Positions 11,936-21,303 of a stretch of DNA of 53,411 bases are shown here, piece by piece. The stretch comes from an uncultured Acidimicrobiaceae bacterium. GTDB taxonomy: Bacteria > Actinomycetota > Acidimicrobiia > Acidimicrobiales > RAAP-2. Location: positions 1 through 53,411 of the forward strand of contig CAIVIS010000072.1 of assembly GCA_903906055.1 (NCBI GenBank), read 5' to 3'. The notes under the pieces are model-generated. The model was not told where the DNA came from and searched no databases. It was given only the letters and a program-made list of their open reading frames with translations. The translations under genes were made by a program, and so were the position numbers. Each line of letters starts with the position of its first letter. Position 1 is the first letter of the stretch.

Positions 11936-13570
11936 TCAACCCCCTGCGGTCAGATCGACCTCGACCACGTCGAGCGCACCGGCGGCGTACCGAGCCCGCA
12001 GCACCTTCTTGTCGAACTTGCCCACACTGGTCTTGGGTACTTCGTCGATGATCGACCAGCGCTCCGGAACCCACCACTTGGAGACCCGGTCCGCCAAGAA
12101 CGCCACCAGGTCGTCCGGCGTAGTGGTCGACCCCTCCTCGAGCACGACAGCGGCCAGGGGCCGCTCGCTCCACCGGTCGTCGGGTACCGCGATGACGGCG
12201 GCCTCGATGACATCAGGGTGGGCCATGACCTCGTTCTCCAGCTCCACCGAGGAGATCCACTCGCCGCCAGACTTGATCACGTCCTTGCTGCGGTCGCTGA
12301 TCTGCATGTAGCCCTGCCCGTCGAACGAGCCGATGTCACCAGTGCGCAGCCACCCGTCGTGGAACCGATCCTCGGACGGATCGCCGTAGTACGAGCCGGT
12401 GATCCACGGGCCGCGGACCTCGAACTCACCGACGGCGACACCGTCGTTGGCCAGTACTGAACCGTCGTCGTCGCAGATCCGGACCTCTACGCCGGGCACG
12501 ATACGGCCGGCCTTGACCCGCCATTCGATCTCTTCGGCCGGGGCGGCCTGGCGGGGCGGAGTGGCCAGCGAACAGAGCGGACTCGTTTCCGTCATCCCCC
12601 AGCCTTGGACCATCTCCACGCCCATCTCGTCCCGGAACCGCTCGATGAGCAGTCGGGGCACGGCGGCACCGCCAGCCGTGATCATCCGGAGACTCGACAT
12701 GTCGACCGTGTTGGTCTGGGCGTATCGCAGCAGGTCGCTCCAGATGGTGGGCACGCCGGCCGAGACAGTCGGTCGGTGACGGTTGATGATGGCAGCCAAT
12801 GGGGCAGCCTGCAGGTACTGCTGGGGCATGATCAGGTCGGCCCCGGTCATGAATGCCGCATACGGCGTACCCCATGCATTGGCATGGAACATGGGCACGA
12901 TCGACAACACGCTGTCGCGCTCACTGATCCCGAGCGACGAGCCGGCGGTGATGGCCATGGTGTGCAGATAGGTCGACCGATGGCTGTAGACCACACCCTT
13001 GGGGTTACCCGTGGTGCCCGAGGTGTAACACATGGCCGCCGCTTGGCGTTCGTCGAACTGCGGCCAGTCATAGCCCGGCTCCTCGGCGGCCAGCAGCTCC
13101 TCGTAGTCCAAGGTGTCGCCCAAGGCCGAGGTATCGCCCTCGCCCACCACGATGATGTGGCGCACGGTGGGGATCTCATCACGCACCTCGCCGAGCAGGC
13201 CGGCGATGGACGCGTTGCAGATGATGACCTGATCCTCGGCGTGGTTGATGATGTAAGCCAACTGCTCAGGAAAAAGTCTCAGGTTCAGCGTGTGGAGAAC
13301 TGCACCCATGGCGGGGACGGCCAAGTACGCCTCCAGGTGAGCCTGGTTGTTCCACAGGAATGTCGCCACCCGGTCCGAGTCGCCTATTCCGAGTCGACCG
13401 AGTGCCCGAGCCAGTCGCTCGGCCCGCTCCGCCACTTCGGTGAACGTAGCCTCGACGGCATCGCCTTCGGGGCTCACGATTGTTCGGATCCGGCTGTCCC
13501 CGTAGACGGACTGGCCGTGGCGCAGTATGCCGCTGACCAGCAGCGGGTAGTCCTGCATGGTGCTGAGCAT
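11936..13570 (-). CDS. AMP-dependent acyl-CoA synthetase (long-chain fatty-acid-CoA ligase family)
   Basis: AMP-binding signature [20 protein letters not shown] and a C-terminal GWLRTGDIG block. Confidence 0.9.
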
Positions 13571-13820
13571 GGTGGTTCCTCTCCTGTCGCCCTATCGGCT
13601 GACGACCGAGTGTACCGAGCCGTAGTCGTGACGATGGGACCGTGCTCTGAGCGATCCATCGGTGACGCGGCCAGCCGTGCGGCGATGTATTGGTTGGAAC
13701 GGTTCGCAACTGACCCTGACCAGAAGGCCGTAGACAAATGACACATCCGACCGATAATCTCACTGATAGAGGTAATTGCAGCACTCTGAGTAGTCAAGCT
13801 GCAGGGAAGGTTCGAGGGGC

Positions 13821-14378
13821 ATGCCACGAACATTGATGACCATCATGGCCACAACCATCGCCGTAGGTGGTTTGGCCACCGGAGTAGCGGGTGCAGATTC
13901 GGCGGTGCCGAAAACTCCTGCGGCAGCTGTCGCCGCCGCGTCTGCCGAGGAGCAGCAACTCCACGCTGCCATCGTTGGACTGACGGCCACAGAGCGGCAA
14001 CTCCAACGCACCCTGGCCGAGCAGCAGTCCGCCTCGGGCATCCCTACGGACACACTGATACCGCCGCCAGAGGTGCCGACGACGACCACACCAGCGGGCG
14101 CGGTGTCGACGACGACGCGCCCTGCCGTGGGTCCGCCTCCGACAGCGCCGTCCCGAGTCCAGTCTCAGCCGTCGCAGACGTCAGACCATGATGATGAGTC
14201 GACTGCAGGTCGGTCGGGACCGACCACAACGACACCGAGCACGCCGAGCACGCCGAGCACGGTGGCGACTCCGGTGACGACGACACAGCCGCCAGCTCCA
14301 TCCACTACCACCACCCAGGCACCCGCTCCCTCCACCACGACCACCCAGCCCCGGAATCGAGGTGGTTCCGATGACTGA
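13821..14378 (+). CDS. Secreted Pro/Thr-rich low-complexity protein
   Basis: Signal peptide MPRTLMTIMATTIAVGGLATGVAGA-DS. A short helical segment (EEQQLHAAIVGLTATERQLQRTLAEQQ) precedes a P/T-rich tail. The tail includes PSTPSTPST (9-bp x3 DNA repeat at 14235-14261) and TTTQPPAPSTTTTQAPAPSTTTTQP. Confidence 0.6.
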   Translation: MPRTLMTIMATTIAVGGLATGVAGADSAVPKTPAAAVAAASAEEQQLHAAIVGLTATERQLQRTLAEQQSASGIPTDTLIPPPEVPTTTTPAGAVSTTTRPAVGPPPTAPSRVQSQPSQTSDHDDESTAGRSGPTTTTPSTPSTPSTVATPVTTTQPPAPSTTTTQAPAPSTTTTQPRNRGGSDD

Positions 14379-15054
14379 ACCGATCGGACCAAGACGCGGT
14401 AGCCGTAAACGCCGCAGCGTGGTGTCGTCCTCGGTGGCAGCCGCCGCCACCGTGGGTGTGACCGGGCTCACCATGGCGTGGGCTGTGGGCTCCACTCCGG
14501 CGACCGGTGTGGCGGCCGGGGCGGCGCAGGTTTCGACTCAGATAGCCGCCGACAAGGCAGCGATGGCCGAGATCCGCCAATCGATCGCTGCCACCCAGGG
14601 CCAGTTGGCCGCCCTCGGTATCGTCGTCCCCAGCTCGGCGACGACCCCAGGGGATCCAGCGGCACCAGCGGCACCAGGAACGCCAGGCACACCAGCCACA
14701 CCTGGCGCACCCGTGCCAGCCGGCGCCACCGCAGCCACCGTCGGAAAGAACGGATCAGTCGTTGCACCAGCGGGGGGAAGTGGCTCCGCAGCCTCCACAG
14801 CCAAGACCCCAGGATCAGTAGCCGTCTCCGGTGGATCATCCAGTTCTGGCGGTGCCGCGCCCTCGACCAACTCGGCATCTAGCGGCGCTTCGGCGCCAGC
14901 TCCGGCACCGGTGGCCACCACTCCGGCTCCAAGTCCGACATCGCCGCCTGCGACATCACCGCCAGCGACCGCACCTCCAGTGACATCCCCTCCGGCCACC
15001 ACGCCTCCACCTCCGGTGACGGCCACCACGGGTGCGTCGGCGGCCACGCCGTGA
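14371..15054 (+). CDS. Secreted Pro/Ala/Ser/Thr-rich low-complexity protein
   Basis: ATG 14371 follows GAGGTGG and overlaps the upstream stop (ATGACTGA). Basic N-region and hydrophobic core end in MAWA-VGS. A helical segment (QIAADKAAMAEIRQSIAATQGQLAALG) precedes the low-complexity tail. The track start is GTG 14362. Confidence 0.6.
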   Translation: MTEPIGPRRGSRKRRSVVSSSVAAAATVGVTGLTMAWAVGSTPATGVAAGAAQVSTQIAADKAAMAEIRQSIAATQGQLAALGIVVPSSATTPGDPAAPAAPGTPGTPATPGAPVPAGATAATVGKNGSVVAPAGGSGSAASTAKTPGSVAVSGGSSSSGGAAPSTNSASSGASAPAPAPVATTPAPSPTSPPATSPPATAPPVTSPPATTPPPPVTATTGASAATP

Positions 15055-16007
15055 CCCAGGTCGAGGTCGACCATCGCATAGCGGTGGTTGCCAGCATCCG
15101 GGCTATGGCTTGTGACGTCACCGTCCACGGGCCGACCGATACCACCGCGGCCTCGTCGATCGACCGGGCACTCGACGTCTTCCGAGCCGTCCATCGGTCC
15201 TGCACCCGCTTCGATCCCTCCAGTCCGCTGATGCGGATGAACGCTCGTCCGGGGCAGTGGCACGAGGTTCCTCCTGTCCTGTTCGGCGCCGTTACCGAGG
15301 CGTACGCCGCCTACGAGCGGACGCAGGGGCGGTTCGATCCTCGAGTGCTGAGCGACCTGGTCGACTTGGGCTACGACCGGAGTCTCCCCTTCGAAGACGG
15401 TGTCGACACTCCCAAGCGCAGCGGAAGCCATCGCCAGCCACTAGAGCGCTGGCGACCCCGCTTCCTCGCCGGTCGCCACCCCGAGATCCACCTGGGGGGC
15501 ATTCCCATCGACCTCGGTGGGATCGGCAAAGGCCTGGCCGTACGGTGGGCCGCCGAGATCCTGGCCGAGGAGATGAGCGACTTCTTCGTCGATGCTGGCG
15601 GCGACTGCGCCTGTCGGGGGACCGGACCCGAGGAGGATGGCTGGCGAGTGGGCGTCGAAGATCCCCGTGGGCGCCTATGGCCCGTCGCCGTGCTCGCACT
15701 GCGCGATCGAGCCTGCGCTACGTCATCGACCCGCCTGCGCCGGTGGCGCTCGGGAACCGAAGCCGCCCACCATCTGATCGATCCGGCCAGCGGCAGTCCC
15801 GGTGGAGCCGGACTGCGCTCGGTGACCGTCGTGGCCGATGATGCCGCCGAAGCCGAGGTCACCACCAAGTCCCTCTTTTTGGCCGGTGTCGACGGCATCG
15901 CTGCTGGCGCCGCTTCGCGCGATACGGCCGCTCTGTGGGTGGGCTCCGACGGTACCGTCGGGATGAGCGCGGCCATGAAGCGCTATGTCGTGTGGACCAA
16001 CGAGTGA
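15051..16007 (+). CDS. apbE: FAD:protein FMN transferase (ApbE family), no signal peptide
   Basis: IRAMACDVTV (the AMGT-type N-terminal block), IDLGGIGKGLAV, FFVDAGGD and HHLIDPASG motifs. The GTG overlaps the upstream stop (GTGA at 15051-15054). No upstream in-frame start is available. Confidence 0.85.
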   Translation: MTQVEVDHRIAVVASIRAMACDVTVHGPTDTTAASSIDRALDVFRAVHRSCTRFDPSSPLMRMNARPGQWHEVPPVLFGAVTEAYAAYERTQGRFDPRVLSDLVDLGYDRSLPFEDGVDTPKRSGSHRQPLERWRPRFLAGRHPEIHLGGIPIDLGGIGKGLAVRWAAEILAEEMSDFFVDAGGDCACRGTGPEEDGWRVGVEDPRGRLWPVAVLALRDRACATSSTRLRRWRSGTEAAHHLIDPASGSPGGAGLRSVTVVADDAAEAEVTTKSLFLAGVDGIAAGAASRDTAALWVGSDGTVGMSAAMKRYVVWTNE

Positions 16008-16852
16008 GCCACGACTCGGCAGTCTCTACCGAGCGGCGGTCACCCACCGCCCCCCGGTCTGTTCCCGAGCTCTCCCTCGACGGAACGTTGCCGATTCTGG
16101 AGCCATCGTCTGACCTGCCGGCGAGACAGCCGGCGTCGCCGATCCCCGAGTTGCGGCCTTCTTCATCGCCACGCTCGCCCCTCGCCCAGGCTGAAACCCC
16201 CGGCTCACGAGCACGGCCGGTGGCCATGTTGGCCGGTCTGCTGGTGGCGGCCCTGCTCGTCGGTCGGTTCGCTGGAACCCCGACCCAGACATTGCTCCAC
16301 AACAAGATGCTGCCGTGGATCCTTGGCCGCAGTTTGGGGGTGGCCACCTATCTGTCGCTCACGGCCATGGTGTTCCTCGGGCTGTGGCTGCGCCATCCGT
16401 GGCGGGCCCGCTTCCGTCGGCCCGGTCCCGAGTCCATCCTTTGGGCCCACGTATCCCTGGCCGCATGCACCGTGGCGCTGCTGGCCGGTCACCTCACCGC
16501 ACTGGCCCTCGACCGCTACGCCGGGGTCGGATGGACCGGGGTGTTCGTCCCGTGGGGAGCGCAGTACCGCCCCACCGCTGTGGCCCTCGGCACCCTCGCC
16601 TTCTACCTGCTCCTCTTGGTGATCGGCACGGCAGCCCTGGCCGGGTCGATCGGTCGAGCCGTCTGGTTCCCCATCCACACCGCCTCGGTGGTGGTCTTCT
16701 GCATGACCTTGGCTCACGGGGTCCTGTCCGGTAGCGACGGCACCTCCCTTCGGTGGGTCTACGTAGCCTCGGGCCTGGTGGTCCTCACGCTCCAGTTCAC
16801 CCGGTGGCTGGCCGGGACTCTTGGCCATGGCTCCGCGGTGATCGACGAATGA
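16004..16852 (+). CDS. Stand-alone ferric-reductase-type (NOX/FRE/MsrQ-like) 6-TM membrane domain protein
   Basis: Six hydrophobic helices. His pairs are H-x13-H (codons at 16448 and 16490) and H-x12-H (codons at 16676 and 16715). The protein ends right after TM6. GTG 16004 overlaps the apbE stop (GTGA). Confidence 0.75.
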   Translation: MSHDSAVSTERRSPTAPRSVPELSLDGTLPILEPSSDLPARQPASPIPELRPSSSPRSPLAQAETPGSRARPVAMLAGLLVAALLVGRFAGTPTQTLLHNKMLPWILGRSLGVATYLSLTAMVFLGLWLRHPWRARFRRPGPESILWAHVSLAACTVALLAGHLTALALDRYAGVGWTGVFVPWGAQYRPTAVALGTLAFYLLLLVIGTAALAGSIGRAVWFPIHTASVVVFCMTLAHGVLSGSDGTSLRWVYVASGLVVLTLQFTRWLAGTLGHGSAVIDE

Positions 16853-18252
16853 CAGTGCAGCCCGAAGTCCGGGTCCACCCGCGTCGCGGGGTCGCACGAG
16901 TCGACTCGTTACTGCCCGGCCTCGGTCCACAGATCACCGTCGAGGCGGCTGTTGCCGGATTAGGCGATCCCCTGGGGCTCCTGCTGTCGGGTCCGCCGGC
17001 CGGTCCCGACGGCGAGGGACTGGAGAGCCACCTGGCCCGGTGGAGCGAGCTTCCCCCACTTGATGGGGCAGGGGTGCGAGCCCTGCTTCGGGCCAGCGCT
17101 CTGGATGGGCGGGGTGGTGGAGGCTTTCCCCTCGCCCGCAAGGTGGAGACGGCCATGCTGGCCGGAGGGCGCCCGGTACTGATCGTCAACGCCAGCGAGA
17201 GCGAGCCGGCCAGTCACAAGGACCGGACGCTGTGCAGCCAGCGGCCCCACCTCGTTCTCGACGGTGCCGCATTGGTGGCCGTGGCCCTAGGGATCGACGA
17301 GGTGGTGATCCATCTCCACCGTGCTCTGGGTTCGCCGGTCCGGGTGCTCGAGGCCGCCATGGCCGAGCGCCAAGGACGCTCCATTGCCGATCCACGGTGG
17401 AGTATTTCGACTGGACCTGACCGGTATGTATCCGGTGAGTCCTCTGCCGTTGCCCGATACGTCGCCGGCGGTGAAGCTCGGCCCCTGTTCACCACGATCC
17501 CGTTGGCCGCTGAGGGCCCATCTGGTCGGCCGACAGTGATCAGCAACGCCGAGACCGTGGCGCATCTCTCGGTGATCGCTCGCATGGGTCCGGACGCCTG
17601 GAGCGGGCTCGGCACGGCGAGCTCCCCTGGGCCTCGCTTGGTAACACTCACCGGAGCGGTAAACAGCCCAGGGCGCGTGCTCGAGGTATCAGGTCCAGCC
17701 ACTCTTGGAGAGATCTTGGCCACCGACGGCATGTCCACTCGCCCGGCCGCCGTGCTGGTCGGTGGCTTCGCCGGTACCTGGTTGCTCGGGGATGATGCCT
17801 GGCAGACTCCGTTCTCACGCGATGCGCTGGCCGCCGTCGGCGTCCAACCCGGGTGCGGACTCCTCGGTGTACTCCCCCACGGTGCCTGCGGACTGACCGA
17901 GACGGCTCGCATCGTCCGATACTTGGCTGGTGAGTCAGCTGGTCAGTGCGGAACCTGCGTAGCCGGACTTCCTCGGCTGGCCGACTCGTGCGAGTCGCTA
18001 GCGGCTGGGACGTTCCGCAAGCGTGGTGTGCGCAAGATGTCCGCTCTGGCCGACACCGTGCTGGGCAGTGGAGCCTGCGGCCACCCTGATGCGGTGGTCC
18101 GGCTCATCCGATCGACATTGGATGTATTCGAGGACGACGTGGTGCGCCACCTCGCGGGCCACGCTTGCCGAGCCGCCGATCATCCTCCCGTGTTCGCCGT
18201 ACCGGAACCGGTGCTCGCCATCGGGCGTGACGACACTCGGGAGTGGACATGA
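16849..18252 (+). CDS. NuoF/RnfC-like NADH-binding FMN and 4Fe-4S flavoprotein
   Basis: GRGGGGFPLARK, VNASESEPASHKDR, YVSGESSAV, ISNAETVAHL and ESAGQCGTCVAG align with NuoF (51-kDa subunit) motifs. The ATG overlaps the upstream stop (ATGA at 16849). Confidence 0.8.
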   Translation: MTVQPEVRVHPRRGVARVDSLLPGLGPQITVEAAVAGLGDPLGLLLSGPPAGPDGEGLESHLARWSELPPLDGAGVRALLRASALDGRGGGGFPLARKVETAMLAGGRPVLIVNASESEPASHKDRTLCSQRPHLVLDGAALVAVALGIDEVVIHLHRALGSPVRVLEAAMAERQGRSIADPRWSISTGPDRYVSGESSAVARYVAGGEARPLFTTIPLAAEGPSGRPTVISNAETVAHLSVIARMGPDAWSGLGTASSPGPRLVTLTGAVNSPGRVLEVSGPATLGEILATDGMSTRPAAVLVGGFAGTWLLGDDAWQTPFSRDALAAVGVQPGCGLLGVLPHGACGLTETARIVRYLAGESAGQCGTCVAGLPRLADSCESLAAGTFRKRGVRKMSALADTVLGSGACGHPDAVVRLIRSTLDVFEDDVVRHLAGHACRAADHPPVFAVPEPVLAIGRDDTREWT

Positions 18253-18512
18253 CCGCCCAGATACGGATCGACCCGACCCTGTGCCGTGGGCACGCCATCT
18301 GTGCCTTGTTCTTTTCTGATGCGGTGGATCTCGATCAGTGGGGATTTGGCAAGGTGGCCGTGTCGGTGATCGACTCGGAACGCGACCTGCGACGGGCCCG
18401 TCGGGCGGCGGCGGCCTGCCCGAACGGGGCATTCGTGGTCACCGGCGCCGATGGATCCGTCGACAACGGGGCACGGCGCCCACGGCGTCTGCGAGTGCGC
18501 GCCGCACGCTGA
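18243..18512 (+). CDS. Small ferredoxin (single-cluster Cx5C...CP type) with a basic C-terminal tail
   Basis: IDPTLCRGHAIC ... AAACPNGAF pattern. The start is GTG 18243 or ATG 18249; both overlap the upstream stop at 18250-18252. Confidence 0.7.
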   Translation: MDMTAQIRIDPTLCRGHAICALFFSDAVDLDQWGFGKVAVSVIDSERDLRRARRAAAACPNGAFVVTGADGSVDNGARRPRRLRVRAAR

Positions 18513-18537
18513 ACGCTGAACGCTGAACACTGAACGC
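18507..18537. repeat. Heptanucleotide tandem repeat (cgctgaa) x4, one variant
   Basis: Units at 18507, 18514, 18521 and 18528 (the last is cactgaa). The first unit contains the ferredoxin stop codon. Confidence 0.9.
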
Positions 18538-18726
18538 CCGACGTTCCCCATGATCGCAATGAGATCGGGCACCCCTCCTGGCAGACGACCCCTTGCCATC
18601 CAGCGGCGCCCGTGGTGGACTGTGGTCGCAGTTTGAGGTCGGAAGCTCGACCCACTGCCATCGGTGCCACCGCACGACTCTGAGCCCCCGCTCACCCCAG
18701 TCCCCCGTCATCGACGAGGAGTCTCC

Positions 18727-19653
18727 GTGAGCAAGTTGGTAGGTGCCGCTGCATTCCTGGTGATCGTGTTGTCATTGACCGTGGCCATCCTGGCCGCCGC
18801 CGTGACCGGTGGGCTCGCGGGTTCCTCACCCAGTGCCGCACCCGACCCGAGCGCTACGACAACTTCGGGCGCAACCGGCCAAGTGGCCGATCTTCCTCCC
18901 GGTTGGCAAGCCATGGAGGTGGCAGCGGCAGCCACCTGTCCTGGGCTGCCGTGGTCGGTACTGGCCGCCATCGGAGCACTCGAGTCCGATAGCGGCCGCT
19001 CGACGTCCCCAGGCGTCTCCTCGGGCGCCAACGCTGCTGGTGCCGAAGGCCCCATGCAGTTCGAGCCAGCCACCTTTGCCGCCTACGCCACCGTCGGGCC
19101 CGGTGGCGCGTCACCAGCCAACCCGTACGACCCGATCGACGCCGTCTATTCCGCGGCCACCATGCTGTGTGCTGACGGCGCCGGCACCACCTCGGGACTG
19201 CGCAATGCCGTATTCGCCTACAACCACGACCGGTCCTATGTGGACAGAGTGCTGGCGCTCTCCCTGGTGTTCGCCGACGATCCATCCGTGGACCGTGCCG
19301 TCGTGGCCGCCATCGGGTTTGCCGCCGGCCAGTTGGGCAAACCCTATCGATGGGGCGGCAACGGACCAGACGGGTTCGACTGCTCCGGACTCACGCTGGC
19401 TGCATTTCGAGCAGCTGGTACCGCGCTCCCTCGGGTGGCTCAGGATCAGTTCGGCCGAGGGCCTGCGGTAGTCGGCGGAGATGCAGTCCGACCAGGCGAT
19501 CTGCTCTTCTTCGGCACAGGGCCAGCCGGGGTGGATCACGTAGGTATCTACGTTGGTTCGGGCCTGATGCTCGACGCACCCCACACCGGGGCCGTGGTGC
19601 GAGTGGAACCGGCGGGCTGGGAGGGATTCGTGGGTGCCACCCGACCGGGCTGA
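18727..19653 (+). CDS. Secreted cell-wall hydrolase: lytic-transglycosylase-like N-domain fused to an NlpC/P60 endopeptidase domain
   Basis: GAGGAG at 18714-18719 precedes GTG 18727. TM/signal segment LVGAAAFLVIVLSLTVAILAAAV. SLT-like block WSVLAAIGALESDSG...GPMQFEPATF. NlpC/P60 block YRWGGNGPDGFDCSGL...GDLLFFG...DHVGIYVG. Confidence 0.8.
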   Translation: MSKLVGAAAFLVIVLSLTVAILAAAVTGGLAGSSPSAAPDPSATTTSGATGQVADLPPGWQAMEVAAAATCPGLPWSVLAAIGALESDSGRSTSPGVSSGANAAGAEGPMQFEPATFAAYATVGPGGASPANPYDPIDAVYSAATMLCADGAGTTSGLRNAVFAYNHDRSYVDRVLALSLVFADDPSVDRAVVAAIGFAAGQLGKPYRWGGNGPDGFDCSGLTLAAFRAAGTALPRVAQDQFGRGPAVVGGDAVRPGDLLFFGTGPAGVDHVGIYVGSGLMLDAPHTGAVVRVEPAGWEGFVGATRPG

Positions 19654-19731: not shown

Positions 19732-21303
19732 CTACGAGCCGTCCGCCCCCTCCGAAGGGTGGCTGGCTCGAGGAGCGACCAGCGAGAGCGTGCCCATCTC
19801 GCCTTCCCAGAAGACGTTGCCATTGTAGAACGGCTGGATCTGGGTGCCCTGTGTCATGGCTGGCAACTGCGCCGATGTGGCCAGCACTGCTCCAGTGGCC
19901 GCGCTACGCCAGACGATGCTGTCGGTGGAGTTGGCCCCAGGCGTCTGCGATGTCGGGATGTCAGTGGTCACGAGCACCCGGTGCTCCGGTGAGCCGATCA
20001 GCAGCATGAACTCCGTGGTGGTGTCCGGCATCGACCAGACGACACTCAGGGATGGCTTGCCTTTGGTCACCGTGAGCTTCAAGGCGTCGACGAGGCGGGC
20101 AGCCGTGTCAAAGACGTAGATACGGCCCGTGGACACGTCGGCGGATACCGCGGCCGGAGCCCAACTGGTGGCACCCAGGGCTGCCGCATAGGTCGGATCG
20201 ATCGGGATGTTGGCGAACGGCTGCAGGCTTGCCGCAACGGAACCATCGGCCTGGCTGATCGCCGTCACCGTCAAGGGAACGTGGGACCTGAGCGAGTTGT
20301 TCTGGATGACCATCCAGTTTCCGAAGACCCCGAGAGATGTCGTGGCGGACTCTCCGGCGATCGGATTCACATTGGCCGCTTTCCACGACGTGTCGAAGGT
20401 GAACTGTCCGGTCGACGAGATGCTGTAGCGCACCGGATAGGCGTCACCATAGAAACTGCCTTCGACCAGGTAGTAGTAAGTCTTCCCGTTGAACTGCGCG
20501 ATCGTCGGCCGAGCACCGGCGGGCTGGGTCAACTGCACTGTGTCATCCACGGTCATGGTGCTGGAGTTGACCGACACGATGACCGAAGGGGGCACCGGTC
20601 CTGAGCACGACAGTGCATTCGGACCCTGCTTGGTGCAGCCGGCGGTCCGGTAGAGCGACTTCAAGATGATGGTTCCGTTCGGTGTGGCATCGAATCCGTT
20701 GAACGAGGTGTCCGTAGCCGCTGCTCCCGGGTGAGGGAGTTCGAGGGTGGCGAGCACCGCACCAGTACCGGGGTTCACCTTGGCCAACTTGTCGCTGTAT
20801 GTGACGTAGATGTTGCCATCCTTGAGCAGGCCCATGACCCCGGGGTAGTCCCAGGTGCCCGCATCAGGGCCAGTGGTGATGTTCATCAACTGCGTGTACC
20901 AGATGGGCTGCAACGTCGTCGGGTCGACCTGGGCCACGAAGGCACCGATCGAGCCCGGGACGTCGCCGTAGCTTCCGCCGTAGATGTACACATGTTGAGC
21001 GTCCTTGTAGACCATGTTGTAGGCCGACGGGTACTGGTGTTCAGGTGATGACTGACTCGTCACCGTGTTGGCGCGATGCTCGGATCCACCGAAGTAGGCG
21101 TCGGAGAAGACGTGCGACCGCCCCGAGTCAAATGACTCGAAGGCATTCAACGACGGAAACCACGGTGCGTTGCTGTTGCTGTGCTGAGGACTGGGCGTGG
21201 CCGACGCAGATCCCGGCGAAGAGGAGATGGATACAGCGACGACCAAGGTCGACGCCAAAAAGGTGCCAAGCGCCACCGCTACGGCCTTGCGAGAACGAAT
21301 CAT
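19732..21303 (-). CDS. Secreted hypothetical protein (523 aa), family not recognised
   Basis: Signal peptide MIRSRKAVAVALGTFLASTLVVAVSISSSPGSASA. Long ORF with coding-type GC3 bias, rich in Gly/Tyr/Thr beta-strand-like segments. I could not assign a diagnostic motif. Confidence 0.65.
   Translation of the reverse strand: MIRSRKAVAVALGTFLASTLVVAVSISSSPGSASATPSPQHSNSNAPWFPSLNAFESFDSGRSHVFSDAYFGGSEHRANTVTSQSSPEHQYPSAYNMVYKDAQHVYIYGGSYGDVPGSIGAFVAQVDPTTLQPIWYTQLMNITTGPDAGTWDYPGVMGLLKDGNIYVTYSDKLAKVNPGTGAVLATLELPHPGAAATDTSFNGFDATPNGTIILKSLYRTAGCTKQGPNALSCSGPVPPSVIVSVNSSTMTVDDTVQLTQPAGARPTIAQFNGKTYYYLVEGSFYGDAYPVRYSISSTGQFTFDTSWKAANVNPIAGESATTSLGVFGNWMVIQNNSLRSHVPLTVTAISQADGSVAASLQPFANIPIDPTYAAALGATSWAPAAVSADVSTGRIYVFDTAARLVDALKLTVTKGKPSLSVVWSMPDTTTEFMLLIGSPEHRVLVTTDIPTSQTPGANSTDSIVWRSAATGAVLATSAQLPAMTQGTQIQPFYNGNVFWEGEMGTLSLVAPRASHPSEGADGS

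Follow-up and report, generated by a model that had tools for sequence, protein, structure and literature searches.

How might a bacterium deliver electrons to a flavin outside its membrane when the membrane protein that would carry them has no dehydrogenase domain of its own and the enzyme that would attach the flavin has no export signal? This question is raised by six genes, here termed p1 to p6, at positions 13821-18512 of a 53,411-nucleotide (nt) stretch of DNA from an uncultured Acidimicrobiaceae bacterium (GenBank assembly GCA_903906055.1, contig CAIVIS010000072.1; the whole stretch is referred to as the window). We propose, with a confidence only a little above even, that they make up a member of the ApbE-associated 'MsrQ-like' class, one that moves electrons across the membrane with separately encoded parts and holds a tethered flavin mononucleotide (FMN) on the outside. 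Central to this proposal is p2, which is a probable substrate of ApbE because of its conserved C-terminal TTGAS flavinylation motif, and which is also the probable outer electron acceptor.

The six open reading frames (ORFs) lie on the + strand, each stop codon overlapping the next start. They encode p1 (13821-14378; 185 amino acids, aa), p2 (14371-15054; 227 aa), the ApbE-family FAD:protein FMN transferase p3 (15051-16007; 318 aa; FAD, flavin adenine dinucleotide), the predicted stand-alone six-helix ferric-reductase-domain (FRD) protein p4 of the NOX/MsrQ superfamily (16004-16852; 282 aa), the NuoF-like flavoprotein p5 (16849-18252; 467 aa) and the single-cluster ferredoxin (Fdx) p6 (18249-18512; 87 aa, or 89 aa if the start is GTG 18243). 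At the p1/p2 junction ATG 14371 meets TGA 14376-14378, the p2/p3 and p3/p4 junctions are GTGA at 15051 and at 16004, p4/p5 is ATGA at 16849, and at p5/p6 either GTG 18243 or ATG 18249 stands against TGA 18250. Overlaps of 4 nt are kept across orthologs (ApbE>FRD in 39 of 54, FRD>NuoF in 45 of 50, NuoF>Fdx in 40 of 43), and the last of these makes ATG 18249 the likelier start of p6. The initial annotation of this locus had listed the same ORFs and junctions together with a lower-GC upstream region, all of which are present in the sequence, and its ApbE, NuoF-like and ferredoxin assignments hold in Pfam (PF02424, Complex1_51K and NADH_4Fe-4S, and Fer4_15, respectively). The Pfam scan of the six proteins matched p3, p5 and p6 only; p1, p2 and p4 gave no useful match in direct Pfam or NCBIfam scans.

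The arrangement of these genes is not a chance adjacency, as it recurs in 53 independent loci. These were returned by a scan of one genome per GTDB species and come nearly all from metagenome-assembled genomes (MAGs) of Acidimicrobiales or Acidimicrobiaceae, from metagenomes of soil, bog or peat, permafrost and lakes; the closest, L001, has 81-87% amino-acid identity. With gene order read by tblastn of the window proteins against the 53 loci, the ApbE gene is directly 5' of the membrane-protein gene in every one, 52 of them have the NuoF-like gene (in the other one the contig stops 217 nt past the membrane gene), and the ferredoxin gene is present in all 46 loci whose contig extends far enough. 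The order ApbE-FRD-NuoF-Fdx is kept as far as the contigs reach, which bears out the co-occurrence in related genomes that the initial annotation anticipated, with the sole exception of L046, where the NuoF-like gene is on the opposite strand and about 3 kb away.

The tail of p2 and the neighboring ApbE

In every locus, the ORF whose end meets or overlaps the start of apbE has the architecture of p2. An Arg-rich N-terminus is followed by a conserved, weakly hydrophobic segment (VAAAATVGVTGLTMAWA; VVAAATVGVTGLTLxWAV among the loci) and a conserved amphipathic helix; next come a linker that is variable and of low complexity, a stretch rich in Pro and the tail TATTGASAATP (nt 15019-15054). Within this tail, residues 217-223 form the flavinylation-type motif T-A-T-T-G-A-S (15019-15039, + strand), in agreement with the [S/T]GA[S/T] motif of ApbE substrates (PMC8238504; PMC12052999), and Ser223 (15037-15039, + strand), four residues before the stop codon, is the predicted site of FMN attachment. 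Seven-residue flavinylation tags are modified best at protein termini (PMC12052999).

The linker of p2 varies freely in length and sequence among loci while the position of the tail motif is constant, even where the other proteins share only 40-50% identity between loci. A tail of the form PPV(T/H)xT[TS]GA[ST] ends one to four residues before the p2 stop in the window and in all 49 loci with upstream DNA, if the TTRAS variants considered below are counted. The motif [ST]GA[ST] lies in the last 12 residues of 39 of the 44 p2 orthologs, where shuffling leads to an expectation of 0.63 and gave a maximum of 4 in 2000 shuffles. There is no [ST]G[AS][ST] site in the other five window proteins, and the Pfam scan found no FMN_bind, DUF2271 or DUF3570 domain in the operon. 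A second SGAS, at residue 171 of p2, is not conserved and occurs by chance. A homolog search with p2 itself found only five proteins, the sequence being of low complexity.

The first protein of the operon, p1, begins with a Sec-like signal or anchor (MPRTLMTIMATTIAVGGLATGVAGA, followed by DS). A short helix is predicted to follow, and a disordered region rich in Pro and Thr then leads to an acidic C-terminus with Gly and Asp. The p1 of the window has no flavinylation motif. Its orthologs in the basal clade (L037 and L040-L052), and in the distant cluster L055, have (T/A)HATTGAS 16-35 residues from the C-terminus, before the Gly/Asp-rich end, and a comparison of p1 with p2 in L055 shows no common block apart from this motif. 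Of the two Sec-signal proteins recognized in the initial annotation, p1 fits that description, and p2, whose N-terminus is Arg-rich, weakly hydrophobic and conserved in sequence, does not have a plain Sec signal. Twin arginines in most orthologs, an h-region of low hydrophobicity and an AxA-type site make the N-terminus of p2 compatible with export by the twin-arginine translocation (Tat) pathway.

Short terminal flavinylation sites have precedents. The C-terminal extensions of FMN_red proteins carry a short [S/T]GA[S/T] motif on an unstructured extension that is flavinylated by ApbE (Huang et al., 2024; PMC11334425), and the engineered 'flavin-tag' is likewise a terminal site, as outlined in the review that covers it (Tong et al., 2021, in PMC12052999). 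The p2 tail differs from both, since the FMN_red tail folds back on its own flavin-binding domain and the flavin-tag is artificial, whereas p2 has no recognizable folded domain. Hence the binding partner of a p2 flavin is presumably another protein, namely p4. A full-text search of a limited set of papers yielded no description of flavinylated disordered tail proteins in actinobacteria.

The transferase itself is readily recognized. p3 matches PF02424 at 7.7e-45 and aligns to the TM1553 and Ftp/ApbE structures (1vrm, 4xdt, 4ifu), including IDLGGIGKG, DAGGD and HHLIDP, the conserved blocks by which its FAD/Mg2+ site was assessed. Where it departs from most characterized ApbEs is in the signal peptide or lipobox, neither of which is found in p3 or in any ortholog among the loci whose contig includes the 5' end of apbE, because the start can lie only about 10-20 residues before the first conserved strand (RAMA[SC]D[IV]T) and the in-frame sequence further upstream is an out-of-frame reading of p2. 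The p2 stop codon overlaps or abuts the apbE start, with a spacing that differs among orthologs (-4, -11, +2, +4, +13 and others). A programmed frameshift that would fuse p2 to ApbE, and so export the transferase, was rejected on account of this variable spacing.

The membrane protein and its proposed soluble donors

Four lines of evidence, namely the His pattern, the profile search, a linking relative and the predicted fold, indicate that p4 is a stand-alone member of the ferric-reductase-domain superfamily. A predicted cytoplasmic extension of about 65 residues, in which a PxPVPEL motif is conserved, precedes the helices at the N-terminus; the protein stops about 15 residues past helix 6 and gives no FAD_binding or NAD_binding match. 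H149 and H163 in helix 3 and H225 and H238 in helix 5 are invariant in 19 and in 92 sequences, and by analogy these four histidines would hold two b hemes. Their spacing of 13/12 residues is identical to that on helices 3 and 5 of NOX5, NOX2, DUOX and SpNOX, which are also the best structural matches; unlike p4, the NOX enzymes have a fused C-terminal FAD/NADPH dehydrogenase domain. The ferric-reductase-type call of the initial annotation is upheld by His spacing and family profile, with the best fold matches in line with it, although not by a direct match to PF01794.

The homology of p4 to this superfamily, as judged from sequence profiles, is transitive rather than direct. A profile of the p4 family, searched against 1.84 billion representatives at E<=1e-3, finds 2107 proteins. 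Among these, P0366 (3.8e-18 to the profile) and P0372 (6.8e-18) score 37.3 and 35.7 bits on PF01794, for which the cutoff is 28, and P0372 is a fused Ferric_reduct+FAD_binding_6+NAD_binding_1 protein. The linking relative is P0250 (1.2e-53), which has a recorded PF01794 match and whose gene lies between ApbE and NuoF-like genes. The JGI annotation of many p4 homologs is YedZ/MsrQ or 'predicted ferric reductase'. Searched against the sequences of PDB chains, the p4 profile gave only a spurious low-complexity match. An AlphaFold2 model of p4 built from 92 sequences has six long helices (pLDDT 70.6, pTM 0.56), and with Foldseek its best eight matches in the PDB are all transmembrane domains of NOX5, NOX2 or DUOX1, at probabilities of 0.80-1.00, with a TM-score of 0.51 to 5o0t and STEAP1 at rank 14. 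It replaces an earlier model from 19 sequences that was too poor (pLDDT 62.7, with NOX5 as the top match at E=0.66). The distribution of Arg and Lys in p4 fits an N-in, C-in topology, as in NOX, and places the most conserved loops (LxHNRMLPWILGR, DRYAGVGWTG..PW and HG..GSD) on the predicted outer face.

On the cytoplasmic side, p5 is NuoF-like but is not NuoF, as judged by its profile scores. It matches Complex1_51K (PF01512) at 1.8e-26 and NADH_4Fe-4S (PF10589) at 9e-16, and reaches 1.7e-46 against the NuoF equivalog TIGR01959, with 158 bits against a cutoff of 559. Its alignment to HydB, NfnB and NuoF subunits in the PDB covers about 360 residues at about 1e-35 and includes the GRGGxGFP, SEP..KDR and GE motifs, and all p5 motifs quoted in the initial annotation are present. 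Residues C336, C347, C367, C370, C410, C440, H157, H412 and H434 are invariant in 41 orthologs. Compared with NuoF, HydB and NfnB, p5 is distinguished by other invariant Cys and His residues (C336, C347, C440, H412 and H434), by the loss of a cluster ligand that is taken up below, and by the lack of a NuoE-like partner, for which there is no gene in the cluster either in the window or in the annotated relative L054; it is also tied to a membrane heme protein rather than to complex I or a hydrogenase. A homolog search with p5 found close orthologs only, among the matches listed. The ferredoxin p6 matches Fer4_15 at 1.6e-07 and resembles the P450-type Fer4_15 ferredoxins of actinobacteria. Its residues C14, H17, C20 and C59, invariant in 44 orthologs, form CxxHxxC...CP, which we take to be the pattern of the actinobacterial 3Fe-4S-type ferredoxins.

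The proposed electron path and its alternatives

Starting from what is observed here, that is, the structure and conservation of the operon, the families of p3, p5 and p6, the superfamily and His pattern of p4 and the tail motif with its linkage to ApbE, we infer the binding of all cofactors, the direction of electron flow, the flavinylation and the identity of the acceptor as follows. Cytoplasmic p5 would oxidize NAD(P)H at FMN and pass single electrons via an Fe-S cluster to the ferredoxin p6, roles that are suggested by family membership. Either p6 or p5 would dock at the cytoplasmic face of p4, and the electrons would then cross the membrane via two stacked b hemes, from the inner to the outer. 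Their acceptor on the outside would be FMN bound covalently to Ser223 in the TTGAS tail of p2, and in the basal lineages to p1 also, the flavin having been attached to the p2 tail by p3. As p1 and p2 appear to be tethered at the N-terminus and disordered over most of their length, they would serve the flavin as a flexible leash, from which it could reduce an external acceptor, with Fe(III) or other metals, humic or quinone compounds and O2 as candidates. In the least certain step of this scheme, p2 would be flavinylated in the cytoplasm and then exported in a Tat-compatible manner. The initial annotation had drawn the path from NADH through FMN and Fe-S centers to ferredoxin, two hemes and the outside, and this is still the most economical reading. 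It had missed the proposed FMN on the p2 tail as the acceptor: it named the secreted proteins among the possible acceptors, and p2 probably is one, but it overlooked the conserved TTGAS tail and gave neither these proteins nor ApbE a specific role.

The published class to which the module is closest is that of the 'MsrQ-like' flavinylation-associated systems, for which 1797 gene clusters were reported, mostly in Actinobacteria and usually with a fused NAD-binding domain (Meheust et al. 2021, eLife, PMC8238504). In 31 of them a NuoF-like protein takes the place of that domain (PMC8238504), so the initial annotation's view that such a composition is without known precedent does not hold, and by a condition that it had set against itself, prior assignment to a known pathway, the cluster belongs to a published class, even if this class is a hypothetical one: it was defined bioinformatically, electron export was proposed (PMC8238504), and its representatives have only been modeled (PMC11334425). 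The two have in common an ApbE gene adjoining that of a six-helix, two-heme-type ferric-reductase-domain protein, a distribution mainly in Actinobacteria, a cytosolic NAD(P)H-oxidizing partner, which may be a fused domain (PF00175) or a separate NuoF-like protein with PF10589 (here p5, with its 4-nt overlap with p4), and a proposed outward transfer of electrons from the cytosol to a flavinylated acceptor. By the operational definition, a PF01794 gene lies within five genes of a gene for ApbE or a flavinylated domain, in clusters whose selection required ApbE, or an FMN-binding, DUF2271 or DUF3570 protein, to bear a signal peptide or lipidation site (PMC8238504). The present cluster fails on three points, these being a direct PF01794 match, a signal-bearing ApbE and an FMN_bind, DUF2271 or DUF3570 substrate: the p4 gene adjoins that of ApbE but p4 itself fails PF01794, being homologous to proteins that pass it, and the signal-like N-termini of p1 and p2 lie outside the four target families. 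The 2021 pipeline as described would thus probably have missed it. The new elements relative to the class, whose 31 NuoF-like clusters we compared by their published description, are a candidate substrate site in the form of a tail of about 10 residues on a disordered tethered protein, an ApbE that lacks a signal peptide throughout, a ferric-reductase-domain family missed by Pfam, and an obligatory, dedicated ferredoxin that is a conserved member.

Among characterized systems, Fre-MsrQ of Escherichia coli is a two-component NOX-like system (Juillan-Binard et al. 2017, as summarized in PMC8238504; Carpentier et al. 2025, PMC12525009) that likewise combines a stand-alone membrane domain with a separate soluble NAD(P)H flavoprotein donor and has a flavin in the relay (PMC12525009). 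It differs in that Fre is the donor and the periplasmic molybdoenzyme MsrP is served, whereas here the donors are the NuoF-like protein and the ferredoxin and there is no MsrP. The FMN of MsrQ is non-covalent and cytosolic, in contrast to the covalent flavin proposed here, and MsrQ is described with one b heme (PMC12525009), whereas p4 keeps both His pairs.

A number of observations weigh against our proposal. Five loci that are relatively close relatives (L003, L005, L029, L031 and L053) have a p2 tail of TTRAS rather than TTGAS, which places Arg for Gly at the most constrained position of the motif, with ApbE intact in all five; this would mean either that Arg is tolerated there or that flavinylation has been lost in this clade. 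In p2 the core T-G-A-S is conserved, but the Asp of the canonical motif D-x-x-[S/T]-G-A-[S/T] is replaced by Thr or His, and the acceptor residue is Ser, which known ApbEs prefer less than Thr (PMC12052999). In a tested ApbE substrate, replacement of the upstream Asp (D->A) had a minor effect, and Gly->Ala halved flavinylation (PMC12052999). As to the electron carriers, neither p4 nor eight members of its family match PF01794 even at E<=10, the Foldseek E-values of the p4 model are only 0.05-1.2, and the first Cys of the CxxCxxC motif for cluster N3 is Ala in p5 (ESAGQCGTC vs ESCGKCxxC). The Fe-S content of p5 is uncertain because of this missing Cys, and a cluster with ligation differing from that of NuoF is plausible from the invariant residues. 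Twin arginines are not universal in p2 and are mostly absent from the motif-bearing p1 orthologs. In addition, no acceptor, transporter or terminal enzyme is conserved beside the cluster in the related loci, the window flanks or the annotated relative L054.

A further and real difficulty is topological, since ApbE is cytoplasmic by its sequence and its candidate substrates have the look of exported proteins. The initial annotation was right in naming ApbE, which it took as a marker of flavin modules that are often extracytosolic, and the lack of a signal peptide in every ortholog is what makes this placement problematic. The conflict can be read in three ways: p2 is flavinylated in the cytoplasm and exported afterwards, its tail stays at the cytoplasmic face of p4, or ApbE has an unconventional location. 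We favor the first, without strong grounds; as no ortholog of ApbE has an export signal, flavinylation is probably cytoplasmic and precedes the export of p2. A bolder version, which we regard as possible but tentative, is that p2 (and in the basal lineages p1) represents a new class of ApbE substrates, membrane-tethered disordered proteins with a C-terminal 'flavin tail' as the sole functional element, which would be modified by a cytoplasmic ApbE before (possibly Tat) export and would act as a swinging redox arm that carries electrons from the outer heme of a split NOX-like protein across the envelope.

The second of these placements uses the same hardware with the flavinylated tail of p2 on the cytoplasmic face, where it would dock at an Arg-rich loop of p4 (LRHPWRARFRRP) between the soluble donors and the inner heme, in a role like that of the non-covalent FMN of MsrQ or the FAD of STEAP and NOX. 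An ApbE that is signal-less throughout would fit such an arrangement, cytosolic ApbEs with cytosolic substrates do exist (PMC12052999), and E. coli MsrQ binds FMN cytosolically via R77 and R78 (PMC12525009); in p4, the loop that joins helices 2 and 3, predicted to lie in the cytoplasm, contains the invariant block R130-H131-P132-W133-R134. We nevertheless judge it unlikely, given that the positive N-termini of p1 and p2, with a hydrophobic segment and AxA-type site, predict N-in/C-out or secreted proteins, that the NuoF-like protein and the ferredoxin already make up a complete cytoplasmic donor chain, and that the most conserved loops of p4 are on the predicted outer face. Moreover, p1 and p2 have the Pro/Thr-rich linkers and acidic Gly/Asp tails that typify exported proteins of actinobacteria.

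About as improbable is that the redox core of p4, p5, p6 and perhaps ApbE is real, with p1 and p2 as envelope or scaffold proteins whose tail serves in docking, processing or glycosylation, in which case the role of ApbE would be to modify another site, to cleave FAD as a pyrophosphatase or to traffic flavin. The shortness of [ST]GA[ST] in a protein rich in Ala, Ser, Thr and Gly, which has a chance SGAS at residue 171, the missing canonical Asp and the five TTRAS loci all speak for caution of this kind, and some ApbE/Ftp homologs are described as hydrolyzing FAD with no FMN transfer (PMC4767422). What tells against a scaffold is that the motif keeps its place while the surrounding linker varies and the other proteins are only 40-50% identical, that it is the only block common to p1 and p2, that the p2 stop overlaps or abuts the apbE start, and that none of the other five window proteins offers an alternative [ST]G[AS][ST] site. 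The least probable of the readings departs from our proposal in the terminal acceptor only: the module would be mainly an oxidase, forming superoxide or H2O2 from O2 in the manner of NOX, at the flavin or the outer heme, or would supply reductant to an unlinked periplasmic-type enzyme, as MsrQ feeds MsrP, rather than reduce metals or other external acceptors. The nearest fold matches of p4 are indeed NOX enzymes, JGI names many of its homologs MsrQ, and a flavinylated three-FMN protein of Streptomyces uses O2 as its acceptor (PMC12052999). However, no MsrP-type or other terminal-enzyme gene is conserved in or beside the cluster, a molybdoenzyme of the MsrP type being absent from the operon, from the flanking genes of the window (those for an AMP-binding ligase, an NlpC/P60-SLT protein and a protein of unknown function) and from L054.

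ApbE-dependent flavinylation is emerging as a general route by which the bacterial cytoplasm is wired to extracellular redox chemistry, and the present cluster would be a compact and testable version of it, with six small genes, no fused domains and a defined candidate site in Ser223 of p2. Flavinylation of the tail would add to the folded domains known as ApbE substrates a bare peptide tail carried by a disordered protein, might explain some of the 'orphan' apbE genes noted in 2021, and would raise the question of how a cytoplasmically flavinylated protein is exported. A flavin-tail class, if it exists, would be the natural counterpart of the engineered flavin-tag and would allow for extracellular flavoproteins without the export of FAD. 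Screens based on Pfam miss both the p4-type membrane protein and the p2-type substrate. The module is widespread in uncultured Acidimicrobiales of soil, peat, permafrost and lakes, where extracellular reduction of iron or humic compounds would matter biogeochemically. The finding bears on the way in which flavins come to be placed outside the cell and does not overturn current views.

Related clusters, upstream region and flanking genes

The distant cluster L055 has the order p1(HATTGAS)-p2(HTTTGAS)-ApbE-FRD and lacks the NuoF-like gene and the ferredoxin, which hints that p1, p2, ApbE and the membrane protein form the core and that the cytoplasmic donor is exchangeable. The gene 5' of p1 in L055 (46-807) encodes a signal-bearing product in which one segment looks PepSY-like by eye only, the remainder being a long Pro/Thr/Ala/Glu/Ser-rich tail that ends in Gly/Asp. 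Two other loci are arranged differently: L058, an ApbE + PF01794 pair, was set aside for want of an ORF with a TTGAS tail, and L061 has a lysine-biosynthesis gene, not apbE, before its homolog; the L062 contig is too short for its arrangement to be read. Four apparent ApbE-FRD-NuoF "fusions" (P0352, P0306, P0309 and P0299) contain long out-of-frame Arg/Pro stretches and were not used, as they are most likely frameshifted gene calls from error-prone assemblies; such pseudo-fusions could mislead surveys of domain architecture.

Several MAGs have two copies of the ApbE-FRD-NuoF-Fdx module. Tandem copies about 4.5 kb apart are present in L020 (2537-5731 and 7090-10278) and L027 (2541-5769 and 7087-10272), and two copies are also found on one contig (L011/L029) and within single MAGs (L003/L008 and L009/L037). 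This suggests paralogous systems with different partners or acceptors.

Upstream of p1, the GC content is 0.57-0.59 over 13550-13999, compared with about 0.65-0.71 for the greater part of the operon and the flanking DNA. This lower-GC intergenic region contains a promoter-like site, TAGACA-16 nt-GATAAT (13731-13758, + strand), about 60 nt 5' of p1. With 10 of 12 matches it is the sole sigma-70-like match in 13400-18900, but shuffles of that interval average 0.6 such sites and the match alone is not significant. Across the upstream regions of eight relatives, a -35-like T(A/G)GACA is kept and an invariant TCAC lies just 3' of a variable -10 region. A reading of the region as an iron box (GATAAT...TGATAG) was dropped, as conservation is confined to the -35-like element and the TCAC block. 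Further upstream, between the divergent AMP-binding ligase gene and p1, there is a conserved intergenic block, GTGACGCGG...GGCGATGTAgGGGgTG, at 13655-13700, which was aligned with L001, L005, L006, L031 and L053 and could be a regulator site or the promoter of the ligase gene.

The genes flanking the operon encode this AMP-binding ligase (- strand) and an SLT+NlpC/P60 protein, and both are retained in the closest relatives only. Two genes downstream of the operon, 19732-21303 (- strand) encodes a 523-aa protein that has an N-terminal signal-like segment and no Pfam match. Within the ferredoxin coding sequence a terminator-like hairpin with a T-run lies at 18288-18306; the count of such hairpins equals that in shuffles and this one is probably a chance occurrence. 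At the 3' end of the operon, four head-to-tail 7-mers (ACGCTGA ACGCTGA ACGCTGA ACACTGA; 18506-18535) run from the last codons and the stop of the ferredoxin gene into the intergenic region.

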